From a virus, in the UHGV virus genome UHGV-1371743: a DNA stretch of 62,614 bases; one strand, written 5' to 3'. This document shows positions 23,139 through 58,094 of the stretch, in pieces. A program made the translations under genes and the position numbers. Under the pieces are notes generated by a model. It searched no databases and was not told where the DNA came from. It saw only the letters and a program-made list of their open reading frames with translations. The number at the start of each line of letters is the position of its first letter. The first letter of the stretch is position 1.

Positions 23139-24200
23139 ATGAGTGATGTTATGACAGTTCGAAAGAGCTGGAATAGGAAAGATATTACAGGACAAACATT
23201 TGGCTATTTAACTGCAATTGGATACGATCATTTTGATGGTAAGAGTAGTTATTGGAAATTTAGATGTAAATGTGGAAACACTGTTATACGTTCTTTAAAA
23301 AAATTAAGAGAAGCGAAAACTCCTAGTTGCGGCTGTTACGCAGAAGAAATAAAAGCAGAAGCGAAAAGGAGACGTGATGAAAAAGAATCTAAAAGTAAAT
23401 ACTATCACGAAAATGCAAAATGCAATCGAAATCTTGAGGGAAACAAAATAGGAAAACTAAAAGTGATTAAGTTGCTTTCAGAAAAATCTGGAATAGACGC
23501 TGAATATTTGTGCAGATGCGATTGTGGAAACGCTGTAATAAAAAAGCAGAAATACTTGATAAACACTTCTAATAATCACAGTTGTGGTTGTGGAAGAAAG
23601 AATGCTGCTTGCAGGGATAAATCAAGGAATAGATTGCTTGGTATATATAGAAATATGATTTATAGATGTTATAACAAGAACAGTTCATCTTACAAATATT
23701 ATGGAGAAAAAGGAATTACGGTTAATAAGATTTGGCTCGGAGACAATGGCTTTGAAAAATTTTATCAATGGGCAATACATAATGGATATAACGATGAATT
23801 GACGATTGATAGAATAAATCCAAACGGTAATTATACACCAGAGAATTGCAGGTGGGCTGACGCAGAAACCCAAGCTAATAACAAAACAAACAACATTCAC
23901 GTTCAATACGAAGATGAAGTAATGACTTTATCAGAGTTTTGTAGAAAATTAGGATTAGATTACAAAATGTCAAGATTGATTATACAAAATGATTGCGTTT
24001 TTTCTGGAGAATATATCGAAAAAATATTGCAGAAAAAAACAAATCCCCCCCCTATAGTTAAAATTGAAGTGAAAAATGAACTAAAAAATATCGAAAATTT
24101 TATTGCAAAAATTTTTAAAGCCCCCCCTATATACTTTTATGGGTCGAAATTTCAGATAAAATCCGTTGAAAATTTCACACCGATTTTGAACCGATTTTAA
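23139..24200 (+). CDS. HNH (HNH_3/AP2-like) homing-endonuclease-like protein; C-terminal roughly 60 aa are low-complexity and doubtful
   Basis: 'IDRINPNGNYTPENCRWADAETQANN' is an HNH_3 signature, with an upstream Cys-rich zinc-binding region. Two poly-C tracts lie in the 3' tail. Confidence 0.6.
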   Translation: MSDVMTVRKSWNRKDITGQTFGYLTAIGYDHFDGKSSYWKFRCKCGNTVIRSLKKLREAKTPSCGCYAEEIKAEAKRRRDEKESKSKYYHENAKCNRNLEGNKIGKLKVIKLLSEKSGIDAEYLCRCDCGNAVIKKQKYLINTSNNHSCGCGRKNAACRDKSRNRLLGIYRNMIYRCYNKNSSSYKYYGEKGITVNKIWLGDNGFEKFYQWAIHNGYNDELTIDRINPNGNYTPENCRWADAETQANNKTNNIHVQYEDEVMTLSEFCRKLGLDYKMSRLIIQNDCVFSGEYIEKILQKKTNPPPIVKIEVKNELKNIENFIAKIFKAPPIYFYGSKFQIKSVENFTPILNRF

Positions 24201-27785: not shown

Positions 27786-28472
27786 GTGCGGAAAATGGAG
27801 AGAGTACAGGATGCAGAGCAGACAGTCGAAGTATTTGAGAATGAAATACAAATGTATTTGTCTATGTTCTGCGAATCCAACGCGATAGAAAGTGAGTATG
27901 ATATATTGCCGAGCCAATGGAACGCAGCGCTGAGCTATATTTATAAACACGTTATAAAACCAAATCCCGATATATTAACTATACCTCATACCGTTAGTAA
28001 TAGTTATAATATTAATGCTGTTGATGATCTGTTAGAGATGTATATCTATATGTGTTACTGCCATAATCAAGAGATAAGTATAAAGGGATTTTGTTTATTA
28101 TCTGGTATATCAAGAGATACAATACATTCGTGGGGGAATAGTAATACAAGGGCTTATATATACAAGGACTTACAAGGGAATATTATAAGTGATATAGCAG
28201 TTAACAACCTGAAAGAAGGGGAGTATATCAAAGAACCAAGTACAGCGGCCTCAGACATTTACAAAAAATTAGTGGAAAATAACGAGGAGTCTCTCGTTTG
28301 TTTGCTAAAAGACAGAAGAAACAACCCAATGAAATACTTGCCGATACTTAACAAACGTCACGGTTGGAATCTTCCGGGAGTGAGCAAGGAACGGACTAGC
28401 GAAAGAGCATTAACAGCTTCGGAACTTCCGAAACTGGGAGAAGTAAAGCAGATCGAGAGCGAAAAAGATTGA
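27786..28472 (+). CDS. hypothetical protein (possible small terminase or DNA-binding packaging protein; unrecognised)
   Basis: 228 aa ORF. RBS 'aggaggtg'. Confidence 0.35.
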   Translation: MRKMERVQDAEQTVEVFENEIQMYLSMFCESNAIESEYDILPSQWNAALSYIYKHVIKPNPDILTIPHTVSNSYNINAVDDLLEMYIYMCYCHNQEISIKGFCLLSGISRDTIHSWGNSNTRAYIYKDLQGNIISDIAVNNLKEGEYIKEPSTAASDIYKKLVENNEESLVCLLKDRRNNPMKYLPILNKRHGWNLPGVSKERTSERALTASELPKLGEVKQIESEKD

Positions 28473-28721
28473 TGTATTTTAACATTTAGAAACGGAGAAT
28501 AATTTAGATTAAAATATATCATTGACATTGGTGCAAATATAATAAAACACGTATAGATGTATTTGATAAATAAGGATTTATTCGATAGATACATATGTTC
28601 GATAGTAAATGAATGATACCTACCCCTCTATACACGAACGCAAAAATCTGCCTACTTAGTCCCCCAAATTCCGAAATAAACAAAAAGAGGTATTTATGAG
28701 ACAGACAGGAGGTTATATGTC

Positions 28722-29066
28722 GTGATATTAGCACTAACAGAAGAACAGGCAATAGAAATACGAAAAACCGGATTGTCTGTTATACAGTTTAAGTATTGCA
28801 TCAAGAATGGAATTAGCATAGCGGTCTACAATTTAAGACAATTCCTCATTGCTGCTAAATCAGCATTCGAGAAAATGGGAAAATTATTCAAGCGTGTTAG
28901 AGATGTCATTGACGATATTCGGTACTTTTTTGAGACAGTACAAGACAGGCTCGGATATCCGGTTTCAAGAAGATATAATTTTGTGAAAATTCTTGGCAAT
29001 ATTGGATACCGGAAACATGACGTTTGGGTTGCGACTCGCACGTATTTGCCAAGAAGTAACTGCTGA
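28722..29066 (+). CDS. hypothetical protein
   Basis: 114 aa ORF. Confidence 0.3.
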   Translation: MILALTEEQAIEIRKTGLSVIQFKYCIKNGISIAVYNLRQFLIAAKSAFEKMGKLFKRVRDVIDDIRYFFETVQDRLGYPVSRRYNFVKILGNIGYRKHDVWVATRTYLPRSNC

Positions 29067-29106
29067 TTTCAAAAATTTTTCAAAAAATAAAAAGAGGGTG
29101 ATACAC

Positions 29107-29259
29107 ATGAACGGATGTTGCGGAACTTGCAAATATGGTCACTACGATAAAATGCAAGGTTATGTATGTGTGAATGATGAAAGTGAATATGTAGCCGATT
29201 TCGTAGAATATGAGCATTGGTGTGAAGATTGGGTGAGTAAGAATAATGAAGATGATTAA
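29107..29259 (+). CDS. hypothetical small Cys-rich protein
   Basis: RBS 'aagagggtg', trimmed from ORF 28993..29259. Confidence 0.3.
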   Translation: MNGCCGTCKYGHYDKMQGYVCVNDESEYVADFVEYEHWCEDWVSKNNEDD

Positions 29260-29328
29260 GCGGTTATTCTGTAAGCATAAACATGTTGATCCATTATACA
29301 CATACCTGGAACGACAGGAAGATGGTTC

Positions 29329-29544
29329 ATGGATTACGCATCATGTTTGGAAGTGCATAGATTGTGGAAAGGAGATTTATTAATGATTAAAGGATTTTTG
29401 TTAGCGTTTAATGTAATTTTGTTTGCACTGTTCTTGATCGGAATGATTTTTGGATTAAAAACCAAAGAAACAGGAATGGGGTTGTTAAGCGGATCGGTCG
29501 CATTGATCATTGCATTAAATTCATTATTTATTTTAAATTCATAA
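29329..29544 (+). CDS. small membrane protein
   Basis: Two hydrophobic helices. Confidence 0.35.
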   Translation: MDYASCLEVHRLWKGDLLMIKGFLLAFNVILFALFLIGMIFGLKTKETGMGLLSGSVALIIALNSLFILNS

Positions 29545-29699
29545 GATTCTGTGAGGTGCTGGAAAAGGTAGACAGATTTAGTCGTGAGAACTGTGCAAAT
29601 TACTTATCTTGTGACACGAGCGAAAGCGTAGACTGTCGGAAAAAAGAAATCGAAAAGACATGGTTCATGTGTGGTGCAAATCCACACCCTCACAATCGA

Positions 29700-30324
29700 C
29701 GCAGTTTTTATTTTTTATTGTTTCATCCTTTCTCCCCATAGCGGAATGCTGTTAAGAGCCGTCACAAGGCTCGTGGGGATTTGAATAAGCAATTAAATAC
29801 AGCGTGAAGAGACGGTAGCGGAACAAGGTTTCGTGGAAGCACATATTTGTGTGGATGGTACAAGTCGGGTAAACATCTGGTCGAAACCCTGCCGATAAAC
29901 AACAGAAAATCATAACGCTTGTCCTCATTCGTGAGTGCCGACTAACTGTTGCATAATCTCAGTTGCTTGTTCTTGTCAGTAAAGACGTTAAAACCCGTCC
30001 TTATACCGAGACGATGAATCTGTTCCATCACGAGAAGATGGTTAAAAACTGTCGCCCTGGCATATGGCAAGTTCGCAATAATGTGCCGATATAGACATTT
30101 TCCACTCGTGGTCGGTTTGAAGTCCTGCAATGCTATACAATCGACAAAAAACTTAATCCAAAGGAAATGAGACAAATTCAGTGATTGCAGTAGTCTGGAT
30201 GCTTTGGATATTCGCCGGAAGTAATTAAATGAGTGACTGCTGGGCGGTCGAGGGTGGTTTATAAGGCGGATTAGTGTCAAGCATGGCACGATAAATATGA
30301 ATGCAAGCAGGGAAGACCTGCTTT
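29700..30324 (+). ncRNA. candidate large structured non-coding RNA immediately upstream of tRNA-Gln (GOLLD/ROOL-like class hypothesis)
   Basis: Roughly 600 nt with no credible ORF on either strand; the 115 aa minus ORF has a non-protein-like R/H/L-rich composition. Locally GC-enriched in an AT-rich genome, with several local stem candidates, and abutting a tRNA. Confidence 0.3.
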
Positions 30325-30395
30325 AGCCCTATGGTGTAATGGTAGCACACGAGACTTTGACTCTCGTAGAATAGGTTCAAATCCTGTTAGGGTTG
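30325..30395 (+). tRNA. tRNA-Gln (anticodon UUG)
   Basis: Manual cloverleaf: acceptor AGCCCTA/TAGGGTT; D-arm GTGT-AATGGTA-GCAC; anticodon stem CGAGA/TCTCG with loop CTTTGAC (U33, UUG, A37); T-arm ATAGG-TTCAAAT-CCTGT; discriminator G. Confidence 0.8.
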
Positions 30396-30532
30396 TGCGT
30401 CCCGCTCATTACCGGATAGACGAGCGCATGAGGTCAATGCCTCGGCAAAAAAAATCAATGCAAAGATAGGAGCAACTGCAAATCCTAGGAAGTTGTTCTC
30501 ATCTTGGAAACCTCACAGAAAGGGGAATTGTT

Positions 30533-31030
30533 ATGTGTGAATTTTGTGAAGAACAAAAGATAATTGAATTTTTTGATGGGAAAATTACATGGCATATCAG
30601 AGAAAAAGGAAAAGGTTATGACACGTACTATGCAAATAGCAAGACTGGGGAACTTGGAATAATCGATATTTCGTATTGCCCTATCTGTGGAAGAAAACTA
30701 ACAGATGGAGAAGAAAAGCATCTGCACGAAAATGAAGAAAAATTTACAAAATGCGATAAATGTGAGCAACTAGAAGAATGTAAGGAAAATAGAAAAGTGC
30801 TTAATATTAATTCTGGTTGCGAAGAATTTCCACATTATGTTCCAAACATAGGAACATTTTGTGGAAAAAAAGAAGTTGAAACAAATACAGACATTGCAGA
30901 ATCTATTGATAAAATTGCAAAACTAAACGATAGACATCAATCCGATTGCATTAAAATCAATCAACTAAATGTGGTAATTGATGTGCTTGTGGAAAAGTAT
31001 GCGAGATTACGGGAGGTCCATGGATTATGA
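30533..31030 (+). CDS. hypothetical Cys-rich protein
   Basis: 'CEFCEE...CPICGRK' zinc-ribbon-like N-terminus. Confidence 0.4.
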   Translation: MCEFCEEQKIIEFFDGKITWHIREKGKGYDTYYANSKTGELGIIDISYCPICGRKLTDGEEKHLHENEEKFTKCDKCEQLEECKENRKVLNINSGCEEFPHYVPNIGTFCGKKEVETNTDIAESIDKIAKLNDRHQSDCIKINQLNVVIDVLVEKYARLREVHGL

Positions 31031-32212: not shown

Positions 32213-33958
32213 ATGTCTTTGGAACTTCAACAAGCAATCCAATCATACGAAAATTATATATCGGATAACGGAATAGATGAATCTGTCATTGATGCAATGA
32301 TAGAAGCGTGCAAAGTGGCATATCAGACGGAAAAAGACATTCCGTATGCACTAAAATTGTCTAAAAGGACAAAAGAGATTATTGAAAAGTTTGTTCTAAA
32401 CCTGACAGGTACTGATATTTGGGGGTTAGAGAAGTATTCTTTTAAAAACAAGGTCAAGTATGAAATTATAGACAAGTTTTATGAAGTTCTCTTGTTGGAA
32501 GCTCAGAACAAGATTGTCGACAGCGGTTTTCGGTATTTAGAACGAAAAAGAGAACCGAAAGAACGGTTTTATATGCCTAGAAGAAAACAATTCTTGAAAA
32601 TTGGTCTCGTGGATGCGTTGCAAGGAATGATTGATGATAAATATGACATTTTGTGCATGTCGTTAATTCCGGGTGCAGGGAAAACAACAATCGAAAAATT
32701 CTTAAATGCCTTAGTGATTGGTTGGTTTCCGAAAGATTTCACACTTTTTTACTCCCATAGTGGCGATATTACACGAATGTATTATGACGGTGTGTACGAT
32801 ATTGTGACAAACACGGACGAATATACATGGAATGAAATCTTCCCTGATTTACACGTTACAAGTACCAATGCGAAGATGGAGCAGTTTAACGTAGGAAAAT
32901 ATAAACCGTTCCCAAGTGTGCAATGTACATCTGTCGGAAGTAAAAATGCTGGTAAGGTTCGTGCTTCCAAGTTTTTGCTTGTTGATGATATGATTGGTGG
33001 AATCGAAGAAGCGATGAATCCAAGCATTTTGGATAAACTGTGGAATAAATACGCCGTAGATGCACGTCAGAGAAAGATACAAGACACAGACGGGAAAAAC
33101 TGCAAGGAAATACACATAGCGACTCGTTGGAGCGTACATGATGTGATCGGGCGCATTCAAAACATGTACGCCGGAAACCCAAGAGTAAAAGTGATTGCGG
33201 TGCCGGATATTGACCCGGTTACTGGAGAAAGCAATTTCGAGTATGAGTATAGCGGTTTTAAAAAAGAGTTTTTCGCAGACCAACAATTACTTATGGATGA
33301 TATTTCTTATCGATGCCTGTATAAGCAAGAGCCAATTGAGCGTGAGGGATTATTGTTCCCAGACGATAAAATCAGACGCTATCTGCATTTACCACATGGA
33401 GAACCAGAGATTATTACAGCTCAATGCGATACAAAAGGAAAAGGTACGGACTATTTTGTTATGCCTGTATTACAGAAGTACGGAGAAGATTATTACTGCG
33501 TGGATGCAGTTTGTGATAATACAGCCGATTATGAAATGCAGTATGAAAATGCGTCTAATGCGATTGTAAATAACCAAGTGCAAGAGTGCGAATTTGAGCG
33601 AAATGCCGGTGGAGATCGTGTGGCAATGGAAGTGAATAAGCGAGTAGAGCAAAAAGGATGGGTATGCAATATTACAGACGTTCCGACAGAGACGAATAAG
33701 GAAGCGAGAATATTTCAATGTTCTAACTGGATTTTGCAACACGTTATATTCAAGGACTCATCACTTTACAAACTGAATGAACCATATGGAGTGATGATGT
33801 CACTATTGAAACAATATTCAGTTTCGGGCAAAAAGCAATTAGACGATGTGCCGGATGTTTTTTCAAACTTTGCTATCCGAATGACAAAAGGGAACAGAGT
33901 TGCTAAAGCTGAAGCAATACACAACCCATTCAGAGGAGGATACGGACATGGTTACTAA
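32213..33958 (+). CDS. terminase large subunit
   Basis: Walker A 'LIPGAGKTT', Walker B 'KFLLVDDMIGG', and a C-terminal Asp-rich nuclease-like region. Sits immediately upstream of the portal. RBS 'aaaggagg'. Confidence 0.65.
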   Translation: MSLELQQAIQSYENYISDNGIDESVIDAMIEACKVAYQTEKDIPYALKLSKRTKEIIEKFVLNLTGTDIWGLEKYSFKNKVKYEIIDKFYEVLLLEAQNKIVDSGFRYLERKREPKERFYMPRRKQFLKIGLVDALQGMIDDKYDILCMSLIPGAGKTTIEKFLNALVIGWFPKDFTLFYSHSGDITRMYYDGVYDIVTNTDEYTWNEIFPDLHVTSTNAKMEQFNVGKYKPFPSVQCTSVGSKNAGKVRASKFLLVDDMIGGIEEAMNPSILDKLWNKYAVDARQRKIQDTDGKNCKEIHIATRWSVHDVIGRIQNMYAGNPRVKVIAVPDIDPVTGESNFEYEYSGFKKEFFADQQLLMDDISYRCLYKQEPIEREGLLFPDDKIRRYLHLPHGEPEIITAQCDTKGKGTDYFVMPVLQKYGEDYYCVDAVCDNTADYEMQYENASNAIVNNQVQECEFERNAGGDRVAMEVNKRVEQKGWVCNITDVPTETNKEARIFQCSNWILQHVIFKDSSLYKLNEPYGVMMSLLKQYSVSGKKQLDDVPDVFSNFAIRMTKGNRVAKAEAIHNPFRGGYGHGY

Positions 33959-56390: not shown

Positions 56391-56394
56391 TCAA

Positions 56395-56413
56395 TAGGCG
56401 GGGCATCCCCGCC
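56395..56413. terminator. hairpin between convergent late and repressor transcripts (no clear U-tract)
   Basis: aggcgggg-cat-ccccgcct with a perfect 8-bp stem. Confidence 0.45.
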
Positions 56414-56420
56414 TATAATA

Positions 56421-57152
56421 TTAAACAGTGGTAGTTTCGACAATGTATCCCATTAACTCATCAATGTCGGATTCGTTTATAATGGCATTTCTATTGCGAA
56501 TTCCATAATATTTAACACTATTCTCTTCTTCTTTTCTTATTCCGATCATCATTTTCCCGTAATAAAGAAAAACGCACTTTTCTGTTTCGTATGGTTTTCT
56601 GTCGTTCGCAAGCAAAAGGATATCATACGGAGAATAATGGGGCATAAAATCTTCACAATTAACTTGGATTCCCAAAAATACTTTTGCCTTAATATTGTCG
56701 GAAAAATCATCAATATCAATCGAGAAAAAATCGTTTGATGGAACTAAATGACCATTTTTATACTTAGGCTTCATAATACTTACTGATTTATGGTTTTCTT
56801 TCCTATTATTCAATGTCTTTTGATGTTGTATAAACCAACTGATCAGATATCTCGAATTTTCCGGAAGTTCTCTGCAAGTATTCAAACAATCTGTTGTACG
56901 TTCTTCCATTGTGTTCGCTCCGAATAGTTCGTCTACACTGATGCTGAATACCTTGGCGAGTTTTACAGCATTCGACAAGTTACAGTCAGAACTATTTTCG
57001 TACAGCATACCTCGTAGCGTGGAAAATGGGATTCCGGCGCGCTCTGATAATTCGCTTAGTGTCATGTTACCAATATAAGAGTTAATGTTTTCACGAAAAT
57101 TATCCATTAGTGTAAAACCTTTGTCCGTTATTGATTTGTTACTTTTGTTCAT
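56421..57152 (-). CDS. CI-like repressor (XRE-family HTH with a C-terminal LexA/S24-like domain)
   Basis: N-terminal 'MTLSELSERAGIPFSTLRGMLYE' HTH on a roughly 240 aa protein, divergent from the early genes. Confidence 0.7.
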   Translation of the reverse strand: MNKSNKSITDKGFTLMDNFRENINSYIGNMTLSELSERAGIPFSTLRGMLYENSSDCNLSNAVKLAKVFSISVDELFGANTMEERTTDCLNTCRELPENSRYLISWFIQHQKTLNNRKENHKSVSIMKPKYKNGHLVPSNDFFSIDIDDFSDNIKAKVFLGIQVNCEDFMPHYSPYDILLLANDRKPYETEKCVFLYYGKMMIGIRKEEENSVKYYGIRNRNAIINESDIDELMGYIVETTTV

Positions 57153-57601
57153 TTCTTTACCTCTCGTAGTATTCTTTTTGGTTGTTTTATATGGTAAACT
57201 ATGAATTGTCCTGTTAAACAGGGCGCTTCAAGTTCTGGCTTGGGAGTGTTTGTGAACCGCAATTCACTCCCAAAACCGATAACATTTTAACATTTTTGAA
57301 GTTATTATTCAAATTTTCAAGTCGACAAAAAACGACAACTGTTTTAAAACAACGTCCACATGTAAAAATACAGGATATAAAGAAAACATATGTTCTAAAT
57401 ATTCTTGTAATTGAGCAATTCCTGTTGGATAATATAAAAAAAGGAATTTCGGATGTGTTTTTGCAAAAGGAGGGTTACTGTGGAGTACAAAGAGAAAATT
57501 ATTGAGATGGTTAATGAGATTGATTGTGAAGATTATCTTTTCAAGATTTATCATTACATACTGGTTAAATATAGAAAATACAAAGAAAAAAAGTCGGAAG
57601 A

Positions 57602-57973
57602 TTAATTCTCCCGGCTTTTATACTTTTCTGCCATTTCTTTTGCAATTTTTCTTAATGCGCTTTTACTATCTTCATCTAATCCCATATATACAGTGATTAA
57701 GCTTTTGATAAAATCATCATCAGATTCTTCCAACTCTGATAAAAGTTCTGTGAACGAACCGTCTCTTTCTTTATACATATCTCCAGTTCCATTTTTTAAC
57801 CAATCTTCATTGACGTTAAATTCCCTACATATATCAGAAATAGTTCTATCAGACGGGATGCGATTTCCTGTTTCTATAAGAGAAATGTAATTTTTTGTTA
57901 AATTCAATCTCAATCCGAAGTCTTCTTGATTCAATTTAGAATCCTTTCTTATTTTTAAAATTCTATTTTTCAT
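57602..57973 (-). CDS. XRE-family HTH transcriptional regulator
   Basis: 'LNQEDFGLRLNLTKNYISLIETGNRIPS' is a classic cro/C1 HTH. Confidence 0.65.
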   Translation of the reverse strand: MKNRILKIRKDSKLNQEDFGLRLNLTKNYISLIETGNRIPSDRTISDICREFNVNEDWLKNGTGDMYKERDGSFTELLSELEESDDDFIKSLITVYMGLDEDSKSALRKIAKEMAEKYKSREN

Positions 57974-58040
57974 TATATCACCTCCTTATGATTTGATAAT
58001 ACCAAAAAAATCACACCCTGTCAAACAAAAGTGTTGACGA

Positions 58041-58060
58041 AGTCATAATAGTGTGATAGT
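58041..58060. promoter_or_regulatory. palindromic operator GTGTGATagtatAATCACAC overlapping a TATAAT box, with extra TCACAC/GTGTGA half-sites at 58001 and 58064
   Basis: Lies in the divergent intergenic region between the XRE regulator and the rightward early genes. Confidence 0.45.
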
Positions 58061-58094
58061 ATAATCACACAAGGTGTGATAAGGAGGCGAAAAC

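Follow-up and report, generated by a model that had tools for sequence, protein, structure and literature searches.

GOLLD is a phage RNA found near tRNA islands; its 3' region is universally conserved and its 5' part variable, and the linker sometimes contains tRNAs (PMC12286853). ROOL, with a mean length of 581 nt and several pseudoknots, occurs near tRNAs in phages and prophages of Firmicutes, and its function is unknown (PMC5737381). GOLLD and ROOL assemble into homo-oligomeric nanocages, a 14-mer and an 8-mer (PMC12286853). Both reside in the tRNA islands of phages and are among the largest bacterial RNAs without a known function. A related principle is found at the end of other non-coding RNAs, for example with mascRNA in MALAT1, where a mimic of the acceptor stem and T-arm or a real tRNA is placed such that RNase P or RNase Z makes the terminus.

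Here we describe an RNA island in the viral genome UHGV-1371743, a Caudoviricetes genome of about 60 kb with nearly all genes on the + strand. The whole stretch of DNA analyzed, 62,614 nt, is referred to as the window. Its closest named relative is Dulem virus 39, whose terminase protein is 86.7% identical. A first-pass annotation had singled out a block directly 5' of a tRNA-Gln as a candidate large structured RNA and a possible member of GOLLD or ROOL. We find that the block contains two conserved, covarying folds, module A and module B, separated by a variable centre with a third small element, motif E. That A and B are real structured RNAs of the + strand can be regarded as close to certain.

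Comparison with known RNA families

The setting typical of GOLLD and ROOL is indeed present, as the block sits in a phage tRNA island, and the island shares with GOLLD the appearance of a phage-borne structured RNA adjoining tRNA genes. Such a location describes the context, however, and is not what defines a family. The island is not a member of either family. With Rfam 15 at the gathering score, the whole window yields only tRNA and a type II hammerhead elsewhere, and covariance models run over 29400-30600 at E<=10 return no GOLLD, ROOL, HEARO, group I or group II intron, so that the check proposed for these families came back with zero matches. The remaining matches at E<=10 are at chance level (SNORD28, RAGATH-10). 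RAGATH-10 (RF03147) was rejected, with 16.6 bits against a gathering score of 41.2 and E = 4.6; it falls on the minus strand of module A, which is the wrong strand, since the G.U pairs of module A favour the + strand. Searches of related loci at the gathering score or E<=1 likewise gave no GOLLD, ROOL, HEARO or intron, and GOLLD (RF01998) is absent at the gathering score from the whole window and from 9 + 7 + 16 related loci. Over the window and 35 related loci, at gathering and permissive E-values, no Rfam family accounts for A, B, E or a further module C found in relatives.

The layout is analogous to that of GOLLD, with a conserved 3' domain (B), a variable centre, A at the 5' end, and in one relative (L080) tRNAs between A and B. 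In contrast, the sequences are unrelated and the k-mers of the modules are absent from the published GOLLD alignment; the predicted product of about 620 nt compares with more than 800 nt for many GOLLD members, and its conserved core, 180 nt long, is also found by itself. ROOL (RF03087) is similar in size to the predicted product, in having pseudoknots and in its tRNA-proximal location in Firmicutes phages and prophages. It differs in that its model matches neither the window nor the related loci and no k-mers are shared, while the supported structure here consists of one three-way junction (A) and a 180-nt domain with two pseudoknots (B), which are separable modules. Our guess is that the island RNA might be a functional analogue of GOLLD and ROOL, not a homologue. 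Literature searches returned neither a description nor the motif strings, and overlap with unnamed catalogue candidates, for example phage csRNA (PMC10690425), is possible. The block appears to hold undescribed RNA classes of the phage tRNA-island kind.

A block without protein-coding genes

The block follows the ORF of a small membrane protein (29329-29544) and lies upstream of the terminase gene (32213-33958). From 29545 to 30532 (988 nt) there are zero + strand ORFs of at least 70 aa. This is the second-longest + strand gap of the window; the sole longer one, 56391-58094, contains minus-strand genes, and 29545-30532 is the longest gap unexplained by such genes and the largest truly ORF-free block. 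The roughly 600 nt claimed at first therefore hold and are in fact part of a larger block, which begins at 29545 and continues past the tRNA. The plus frames had been described as full of stops, and 6-16 stops per frame are found in 29545-30323. All three stop kinds occur in all six frames, so that recoding of a stop codon rescues no ORF. A 115-aa ORF on the minus strand (29942-30289) had been judged unlike a protein; Pfam and PHROG searches with it and with the other small ORFs of the block gave zero matches, and the 115-aa ORF overlaps RNA structure that covaries on the + strand. The enrichment in G+C that had been noticed is also real, with 0.434 for 29700-30324 against 0.370 for the whole window, and only 3.8% of 625-nt windows are equally GC-rich.

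On its 3' side the block abuts, as described before, a tRNA gene, tRNA-Gln(UUG) at 30324-30396 on the + strand, called by ARAGORN and by the Rfam tRNA model with 63.1 bits. A scan of the + strand of 29545-30532 detected no promoter-like or terminator-like site, which suggests that the island is co-transcribed with its flanking genes. The folding energy of the whole region is no better than that of shuffled sequences (z = +0.41 for the + strand and -1.40 for the minus strand), and the evidence for structure is therefore comparative and not thermodynamic.

Homologs and their carriers

Homologs were collected by blastn against phage records, followed by pattern scans of viral, metagenome and genome collections. 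In the blastn searches two short conserved pieces of the block were found: Dulem virus 39 has one of them (95% over 60 nt), and Blautia phage Montmirail the other, upstream of a tRNA-Asn (78% over 82 nt). Montmirail is a sequenced carrier of module B with a named host, Blautia coccoides. The loci from the pattern scans include near-identical phages and mosaic relatives, but also contigs of metagenome-assembled genomes (MAGs) of Lachnospiraceae, Eubacterium and Eubacteriales. The homologs sit within tRNA arrays of viral contigs and of Clostridia MAG contigs, and the family can be assigned to phages of gut Clostridia on the basis of these carriers.

How does the island travel between these phages? 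They are sharply mosaic, with blocks at 0-1 differences per 100 nt adjoining blocks that are 16-35% diverged. When positions 28400-30720 were compared with five relatives (L072, L009, L005, L013 and L018), the stretch from the start of a tRNA-like element, described below, to the end of tRNA-Gln differed at 0-1 positions per 100 nt, whereas the flanks of the mosaic relatives reached 16-35 per 100. The left boundary coincides with the start of the tRNA-like element and the right one with the 3' end of tRNA-Gln. Near-identity inside 29550-30400 despite diverged flanks indicates that the RNA island moves between phages as one cassette.

The same phages carry a number of other RNA elements. In Dulem virus 39 an RtcB RNA ligase is encoded beside the tRNA/RNA island. 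The relatives are rich in catalogued RNAs, namely RAGATH-27, type II hammerheads and int-alpA motifs (L001 2419-2502; L133 6448-6531; L014 7964-8029; L017 4338-4406; L161 7262-7329; L015 5522-5591 and 6228-6295; L041 2697-2762). Three further modules, C, D and F, recur in relatives and are absent or degenerate in the window (L001 3290-3360, L010, L012, L015, L016, L017, L020, L022, L024, L025 and L074). Module C (GGCAGCCGAAUGGCAG...CUGCACAGUCCUUGCAGACAUAAAAUGG) adjoins a tRNA or module B, module D is a helix of CUAUAUGG...CCAUAUAG, and module F is CGCUUGCUAGAGCGUAUAGG...CUACUGCUUGAGG; together with A, these three may build up a larger RNA, about 450-550 nt long. In the window itself, the type II hammerhead ribozyme lies at 25050-24985 on the minus strand (59.8 bits, above the gathering score), and a twister-P1-like match at 24727-24676 on the same strand, which is sub-threshold (39.2 against 67.2 bits; E = 1.2e-6 in a 1.5-kb search). 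The two are about 260 nt apart in an ORF-poor gap just after an HNH endonuclease gene (23139-24200). Two self-cleaving ribozymes on the minus strand could cut out a piece of RNA about 300 nt long.

Module A, a three-way junction

Module A comprises 46 nt on the + strand (29734-29779). Its closing helix P1 (CCCCA/UGGGG) encloses a first hairpin, AGC-GGAAU-GCU, a linker GUUAA and a second hairpin, GAGCC-GUCACAA-GGCUC. In 13 distinct homologs 100% of the cells are paired, compared with 34-50% when the partners are slid, and compensatory change is seen in 5 of the 13 pairs; an additional one, CCCCG/CGGGG, occurs in the copy of L133. The occurrence of G.U pairs points to an RNA of the + strand. Hairpin 1 (AGC-GGAAW-GCU) is invariant among the copies, and a pattern scan in which it was left free returned chance matches only (L087-L092), from which we conclude that this hairpin is fixed in sequence.

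The module is always found about 32-72 nt 3' of a tRNA or of the tRNA-like element; a tRNA is the upstream partner in L001, L012, L016, L017 and L080, the tRNA-like element in the window clade. In the window the intervening sequence (29695-29733, + strand) is a U-rich spacer ending in UCCUUUCU (29726-29733), and is probably the 5' leader of the released RNA. Each of the 13 distinct module A copies has UCCUUUCU or a similar sequence in front of it, although this was not part of the search pattern. The usual ribosome-binding sequence of this phage, AGAAAGGA, is complementary to UCCUUUCU, which equals the 3' tail of Firmicutes 16S rRNA.

Module B, a double-pseudoknot domain

Module B is a domain of 180 nt on the + strand (30095-30275) with five helices and two pseudoknots. 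P0 (30111-30117/30139-30145) is a hairpin with a conserved loop, and a linker, AAAAACUUWAUCC, is conserved as well. P1 (30156-30163/30202-30209) and P2 (30177-30181/30195-30199) are followed by P3 (30211-30216/30265-30270), which encloses GGAAGUAAUU, the variable hairpin P4 (30235-30240/30244-30249) and GGURGUUUAUAAGG. The first pseudoknot, PK1 (30125-30131/30184-30190), pairs CUGCAAU of the P0 loop with AUUGCAG of the P2 loop; the second, PK2 (30102-30107/30252-30257), pairs CCACUC upstream of P0 with GGGUGG upstream of UUUAUAA.

A covariance model (R1) was built from 11 sequences, with the pseudoknots left out. It retrieved 37 matches, 19 of them distinct, with E-values from 1e-9 to 1e-45, as well as L099 and L096; weak matches in L097, L098, L102 and L017 (1630-1771) were rejected since their helices are broken. 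Among the 19 distinct homologs 93.1% of the cells are paired, against 25-41% with the partners slid, and 32 of the 45 pairs show compensatory change, while 0 of 500 shuffles reach any of the measures. The pseudoknots, though absent from the model, are paired in 90% and 95%, with variants that include UCGCAA/UUGCGA, CACUU/AAGUG, CUACC/GGUAG and CUGCC/GGCAG. RNAalifold on a plain MAFFT alignment also finds compensatory change, in 11 of 17 pairs, and frequent G.U pairs again settle that the RNA is that of the + strand. The homolog and covariation analysis suggested at the outset therefore speaks for both modules, which are conserved and covary among relatives. A likeness of module B to RNase P RNA was considered and dropped; it rests on one short motif, GAAGUCC against GAAAGUCC.

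In about 16 of 21 distinct copies a tRNA follows 3' of module B on the same strand. The gap is only 0-3 nt in L001, L007b, L039 and L041b, and tRNA-like sequences then follow the module in L022, L024 and L080. Within the window clade (8 relatives) the distance is fixed at 47-50 nt, and the tRNA can be Gln, Ile, His or Tyr. This clade-specific linker (30276-30323, + strand) forms two hairpins and is conserved in the 8 relatives whichever tRNA comes next. The first is GUGUC-AAGCAU-GGCAC (30274-30289, + strand), the second AGCAGG-GAAGA-CCUGCU (30306-30322, + strand). The latter, gcaggGAAGAcctgc, had already been noticed as a local hairpin and proved genuine, as it covaries in relatives (CCGG/CCGG, CCUG/CAGG).

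On the 5' side, an upstream tRNA ends where module B begins in L007b and L096, and the module is there exactly the spacer between two tRNAs. The module is also duplicated within the tRNA arrays of L007 and L041. One of these copies, L041a, is followed by a terminator-like hairpin in place of a tRNA, which argues for a stand-alone RNA.

A variable centre and a widespread hairpin motif

Between the two modules lies a variable centre of 315 nt (29780-30094, + strand), which is lineage-specific except for motif E. In other phages it is swapped for a different sequence or absent. The spacing from A to B accordingly ranges from 97 nt in L031, where the centre is missing and A abuts B, to about 990 nt in L080, where two tRNA-like genes and an ORF are found between the modules. 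The search for homologs of the centre yielded, apart from motif E, only copies that are at least 99% identical, and about 275 nt are thus without comparative support.

Motif E (29975-30013, + strand) consists of a hairpin, GUC-AGUAAA-GAC, followed by GUUAAAACC and a second hairpin, CGUC...GACG. The consensus reads GUC-AAGGAAAA-GAC-GUUAAAACCCG and then a variable hairpin, the first hairpin and tail spanning roughly 25 nt. The copy in the window has the tail and the second hairpin; its loop, AGUAAA, lacks the GGA of the consensus. A pattern scan identified 85 viral loci of very different base composition, and copies are seen across the loci L103-L178. In 32 of 74 distinct copies AAGGAAAA is closed by at least 3 bp, using 19 different stems, compared with 0-8% for control 8-mers. 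Tandem repeats in MG-B1 and several contigs have the same loop on different covarying stems; arrays of such stem-AAGGAAAA-stem units are found in MG-B1, L103, L117 and L126. By blastn the motif was located in phi29-like Bacillus phages, in Pseudomonas phage LUZ100 and in phages of Escherichia and Vibrio, with nearly all copies falling between genes in DNA that carries no annotation. The LUZ100 copy stands a short way downstream of an annotated early/host promoter, beside a leader that contains a boxA. The second hairpin is less clear-cut: in a simple test it is not above shuffles overall (stem length 4.15 against 3.81), and a clean CG...CG-UAAAA pattern appears in a subset of copies only. Motif E is a hairpin motif common to very diverse phages, and no Rfam family covers it. 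A link to the phi29 pRNA was rejected, as the weak pRNA match in phage Harambe sits elsewhere.

The CsrA consensus is A(N)GGA in a hairpin loop, and motif E resembles the Csr/Rsm sponges (CsrB, RsmY/Z) in its repeated GGA-loop hairpins on variable stems. The loop in the window (AGUAAA) and several others (AGAAAA) are without GGA, however, and those sponges have nothing that corresponds to the 3' tail GUUAAAACCCG, which is just as well conserved. A role as decoy for CsrA or the ribosome may serve as a lead only.

tRNA-type punctuation and a proposed processing model

Upstream of module A the island begins with a tRNA-like element (TLE; 29550-29694, + strand), in which an acceptor-like stem is stacked on a T-arm-like hairpin. 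The stem of 7 bp pairs UGUGAGG (29550-29556) with CCUCACA (29688-29694), and the hairpin, GUGUGG-UGCAAAU-CCACAC, occupies 29669-29687. The ends of the element are conserved in L010, L014, L025, L031 and L074, between them lies an interior of 83 to 171 nt, and all five variants retained the same closing stem and T-arm on folding. The short 83-nt form (L031, L074) resembles a type II tRNA with odd loops, UACUCCC and UGCAAAU, and its anticodon-like stem shows compensatory change (CGAUU/GAUCG to CGAGU/GCUCG). ARAGORN and the Rfam tRNA model (RF00005) call neither the element in the window nor the short form of L074. Measured against a tRNA, its T-loop is UGCAAAU and not UUCRANN, and where a tRNA has a 7-nt anticodon loop with U33 the short form shows UACUCCC; only the minihelix of acceptor and T-arm is tRNA-like. 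We propose from these features that the element could be a processing signal for RNase P and RNase Z, where cleavage has to be assumed given that tRNA callers refuse the element and its T-loop deviates. Just as in mascRNA and tRNA-punctuated transcripts, the window RNA is flanked by such signals, the TLE and tRNA-Gln, at which cleavage is predicted here; unlike in mascRNA, the context is a bacterial phage and the interior of the element is long and variable.

In relatives, real tRNAs occupy both flanking positions, the upstream site of the TLE and the downstream site of tRNA-Gln. From this arrangement it would appear that an RNA of about 620 nt is set free by RNase Z and RNase P. The island would accordingly be a rightward-transcribed, modular, structured non-coding RNA punctuated by tRNA-type processing signals. 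The cut of RNase Z would fall 3' of the tRNA-like minihelix on the upstream side; RNase P would cleave where tRNA-Gln begins and thereby set the 3' end of the upstream RNA. The product, roughly 29695-30323, would carry A at its 5' end, the variable centre with E in the middle, and B plus the two-hairpin linker at the 3' terminus. Other phages would release these modules singly, from between true tRNAs. We consider this picture of a modular island with tRNA-type punctuation and a processed product somewhat more probable than not, and hold the release of A and B by tRNA-type processing to be likely to the same modest degree. Our best guess is that the product is a processed, trans-acting RNA made during infection. 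It might be stable and act on a conserved component of the host translation or tRNA machinery.

Is this one RNA, or are there several? Structural evidence exists for module A with its 46 nt, for motif E with about 40 nt, and for B, which together with the linker measures about 230 nt. The order of A and B is constant wherever both are present. Module B occurs without A in L007, L039, L041, L030 and L096, and A without B in L012, L015, L016 and L017; in L001 and L080 ORFs or tRNAs separate the two. As the modules occur independently, they may be separate RNAs that are merely adjacent in this phage. A long-range helix between the leader of A and the linker of B was looked for, with no consistent candidate common to the window and L031. 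On the other hand, nothing tRNA-like was found between A and B in the window (Rfam, E<=10), which makes a single composite RNA the simplest product. With A and B separable and the centre without diverged homologs, it is by way of inference that we arrive at one large ornate RNA, and from the sequence we would give even chances that the window yields a single product of about 620 nt. What holds of the large structured RNA initially claimed is hence its non-coding nature, its direction, which is that of the tRNA, and its covarying structure; a single RNA of about 600 nt is unproven.

Weighing the alternatives

Could module B, with or without the linker, instead be a cis-acting 5' leader of the tRNA array that guides, times or protects tRNA maturation, with A, E and the centre unrelated to it? 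It might, for example, block 5'-to-3' decay or present the precursor to RNase P. Exonuclease-resistant RNAs use compact double-pseudoknot folds, and the placement of B upstream of a tRNA in most copies, many of them at 0-3 nt, would suit such a role, as does its position before the first tRNA of the array in the window clade. The tRNA that follows, however, may be Gln, Ile, His, Tyr, Thr, Met, Ala or Asn, L041a ends in its terminator-like hairpin, and L030 has no tRNA after B. Other tRNAs of the same arrays lack the module, and its adjacency to a tRNA is equally explained by RNase P making the 3' end of B. We therefore regard a cis-acting leader as unlikely, if the most serious of the competing views.

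Still less probable, to our mind, is a control RNA for processive antitermination of the put or nut type, or for the late operon, that would act on the very RNA polymerase transcribing it and allow readthrough into packaging and structural genes. In the window, in Dulem virus 39 and in Montmirail the island does lie immediately before the terminase and late genes, a terminator-like hairpin comes after one copy of B, and motif E of LUZ100 stands downstream of an early promoter beside a boxA-containing leader. Yet the scan of the window gave no terminator 3' of B, none of the Rfam put, nut or EAR models shows similarity, and the duplication of B inside the tRNA arrays of L007 and L041 is awkward for one control site. 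That the block is no RNA gene at all, and either represents coding sequence of a degenerate or unusual type or acts at the level of DNA, for instance as an origin or pac site, is scarcely credible. The 115-aa minus ORF and the neighbouring packaging genes might be cited in favour, but no Pfam or PHROG match was obtained and all three stop kinds occupy all frames. Moreover, compensatory and G.U changes in the helices make sense only for a + strand RNA, and it is the loops that are conserved and the stems that vary, whereas a site bound by protein as a duplex would show the reverse. The covariation already contradicts this last reading. The modular RNA island with tRNA-type punctuation remains the reading that we prefer.

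Implications for phage tRNA islands

Of the elements described here, module B offers the most direct access: with 180 nt, and occurring alone between two tRNAs, it is far more tractable than an RNA of 800 nt for structural and biochemical work. Motif E is perhaps of wider interest than the block itself, with copies in phages of Clostridia, Bacillus, Pseudomonas, Escherichia and Vibrio. A bolder idea, to which we attach little probability, would combine the two. In this idea B would supply the core, catalytic or for assembly, of a third and so far overlooked class of tRNA-island RNA, either as a ribozyme acting on tRNA precursors or as a self-assembling particle like GOLLD and ROOL. Motif E, which extends from gut Clostridia phages to phi29-like phages of Bacillus and T7-like ones of Pseudomonas, would be a pan-phage hairpin and serve as a decoy for a universally conserved host factor, for instance CsrA or the anti-Shine-Dalgarno end of the ribosome; both together would form a compact RNA tool-kit for host takeover. 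Beyond such speculation, the island adds a third, unrelated set of conserved folds to those of GOLLD and ROOL in phage tRNA islands. This suggests that the niche is a general one, in which tRNA-punctuated transcripts release structured RNAs.
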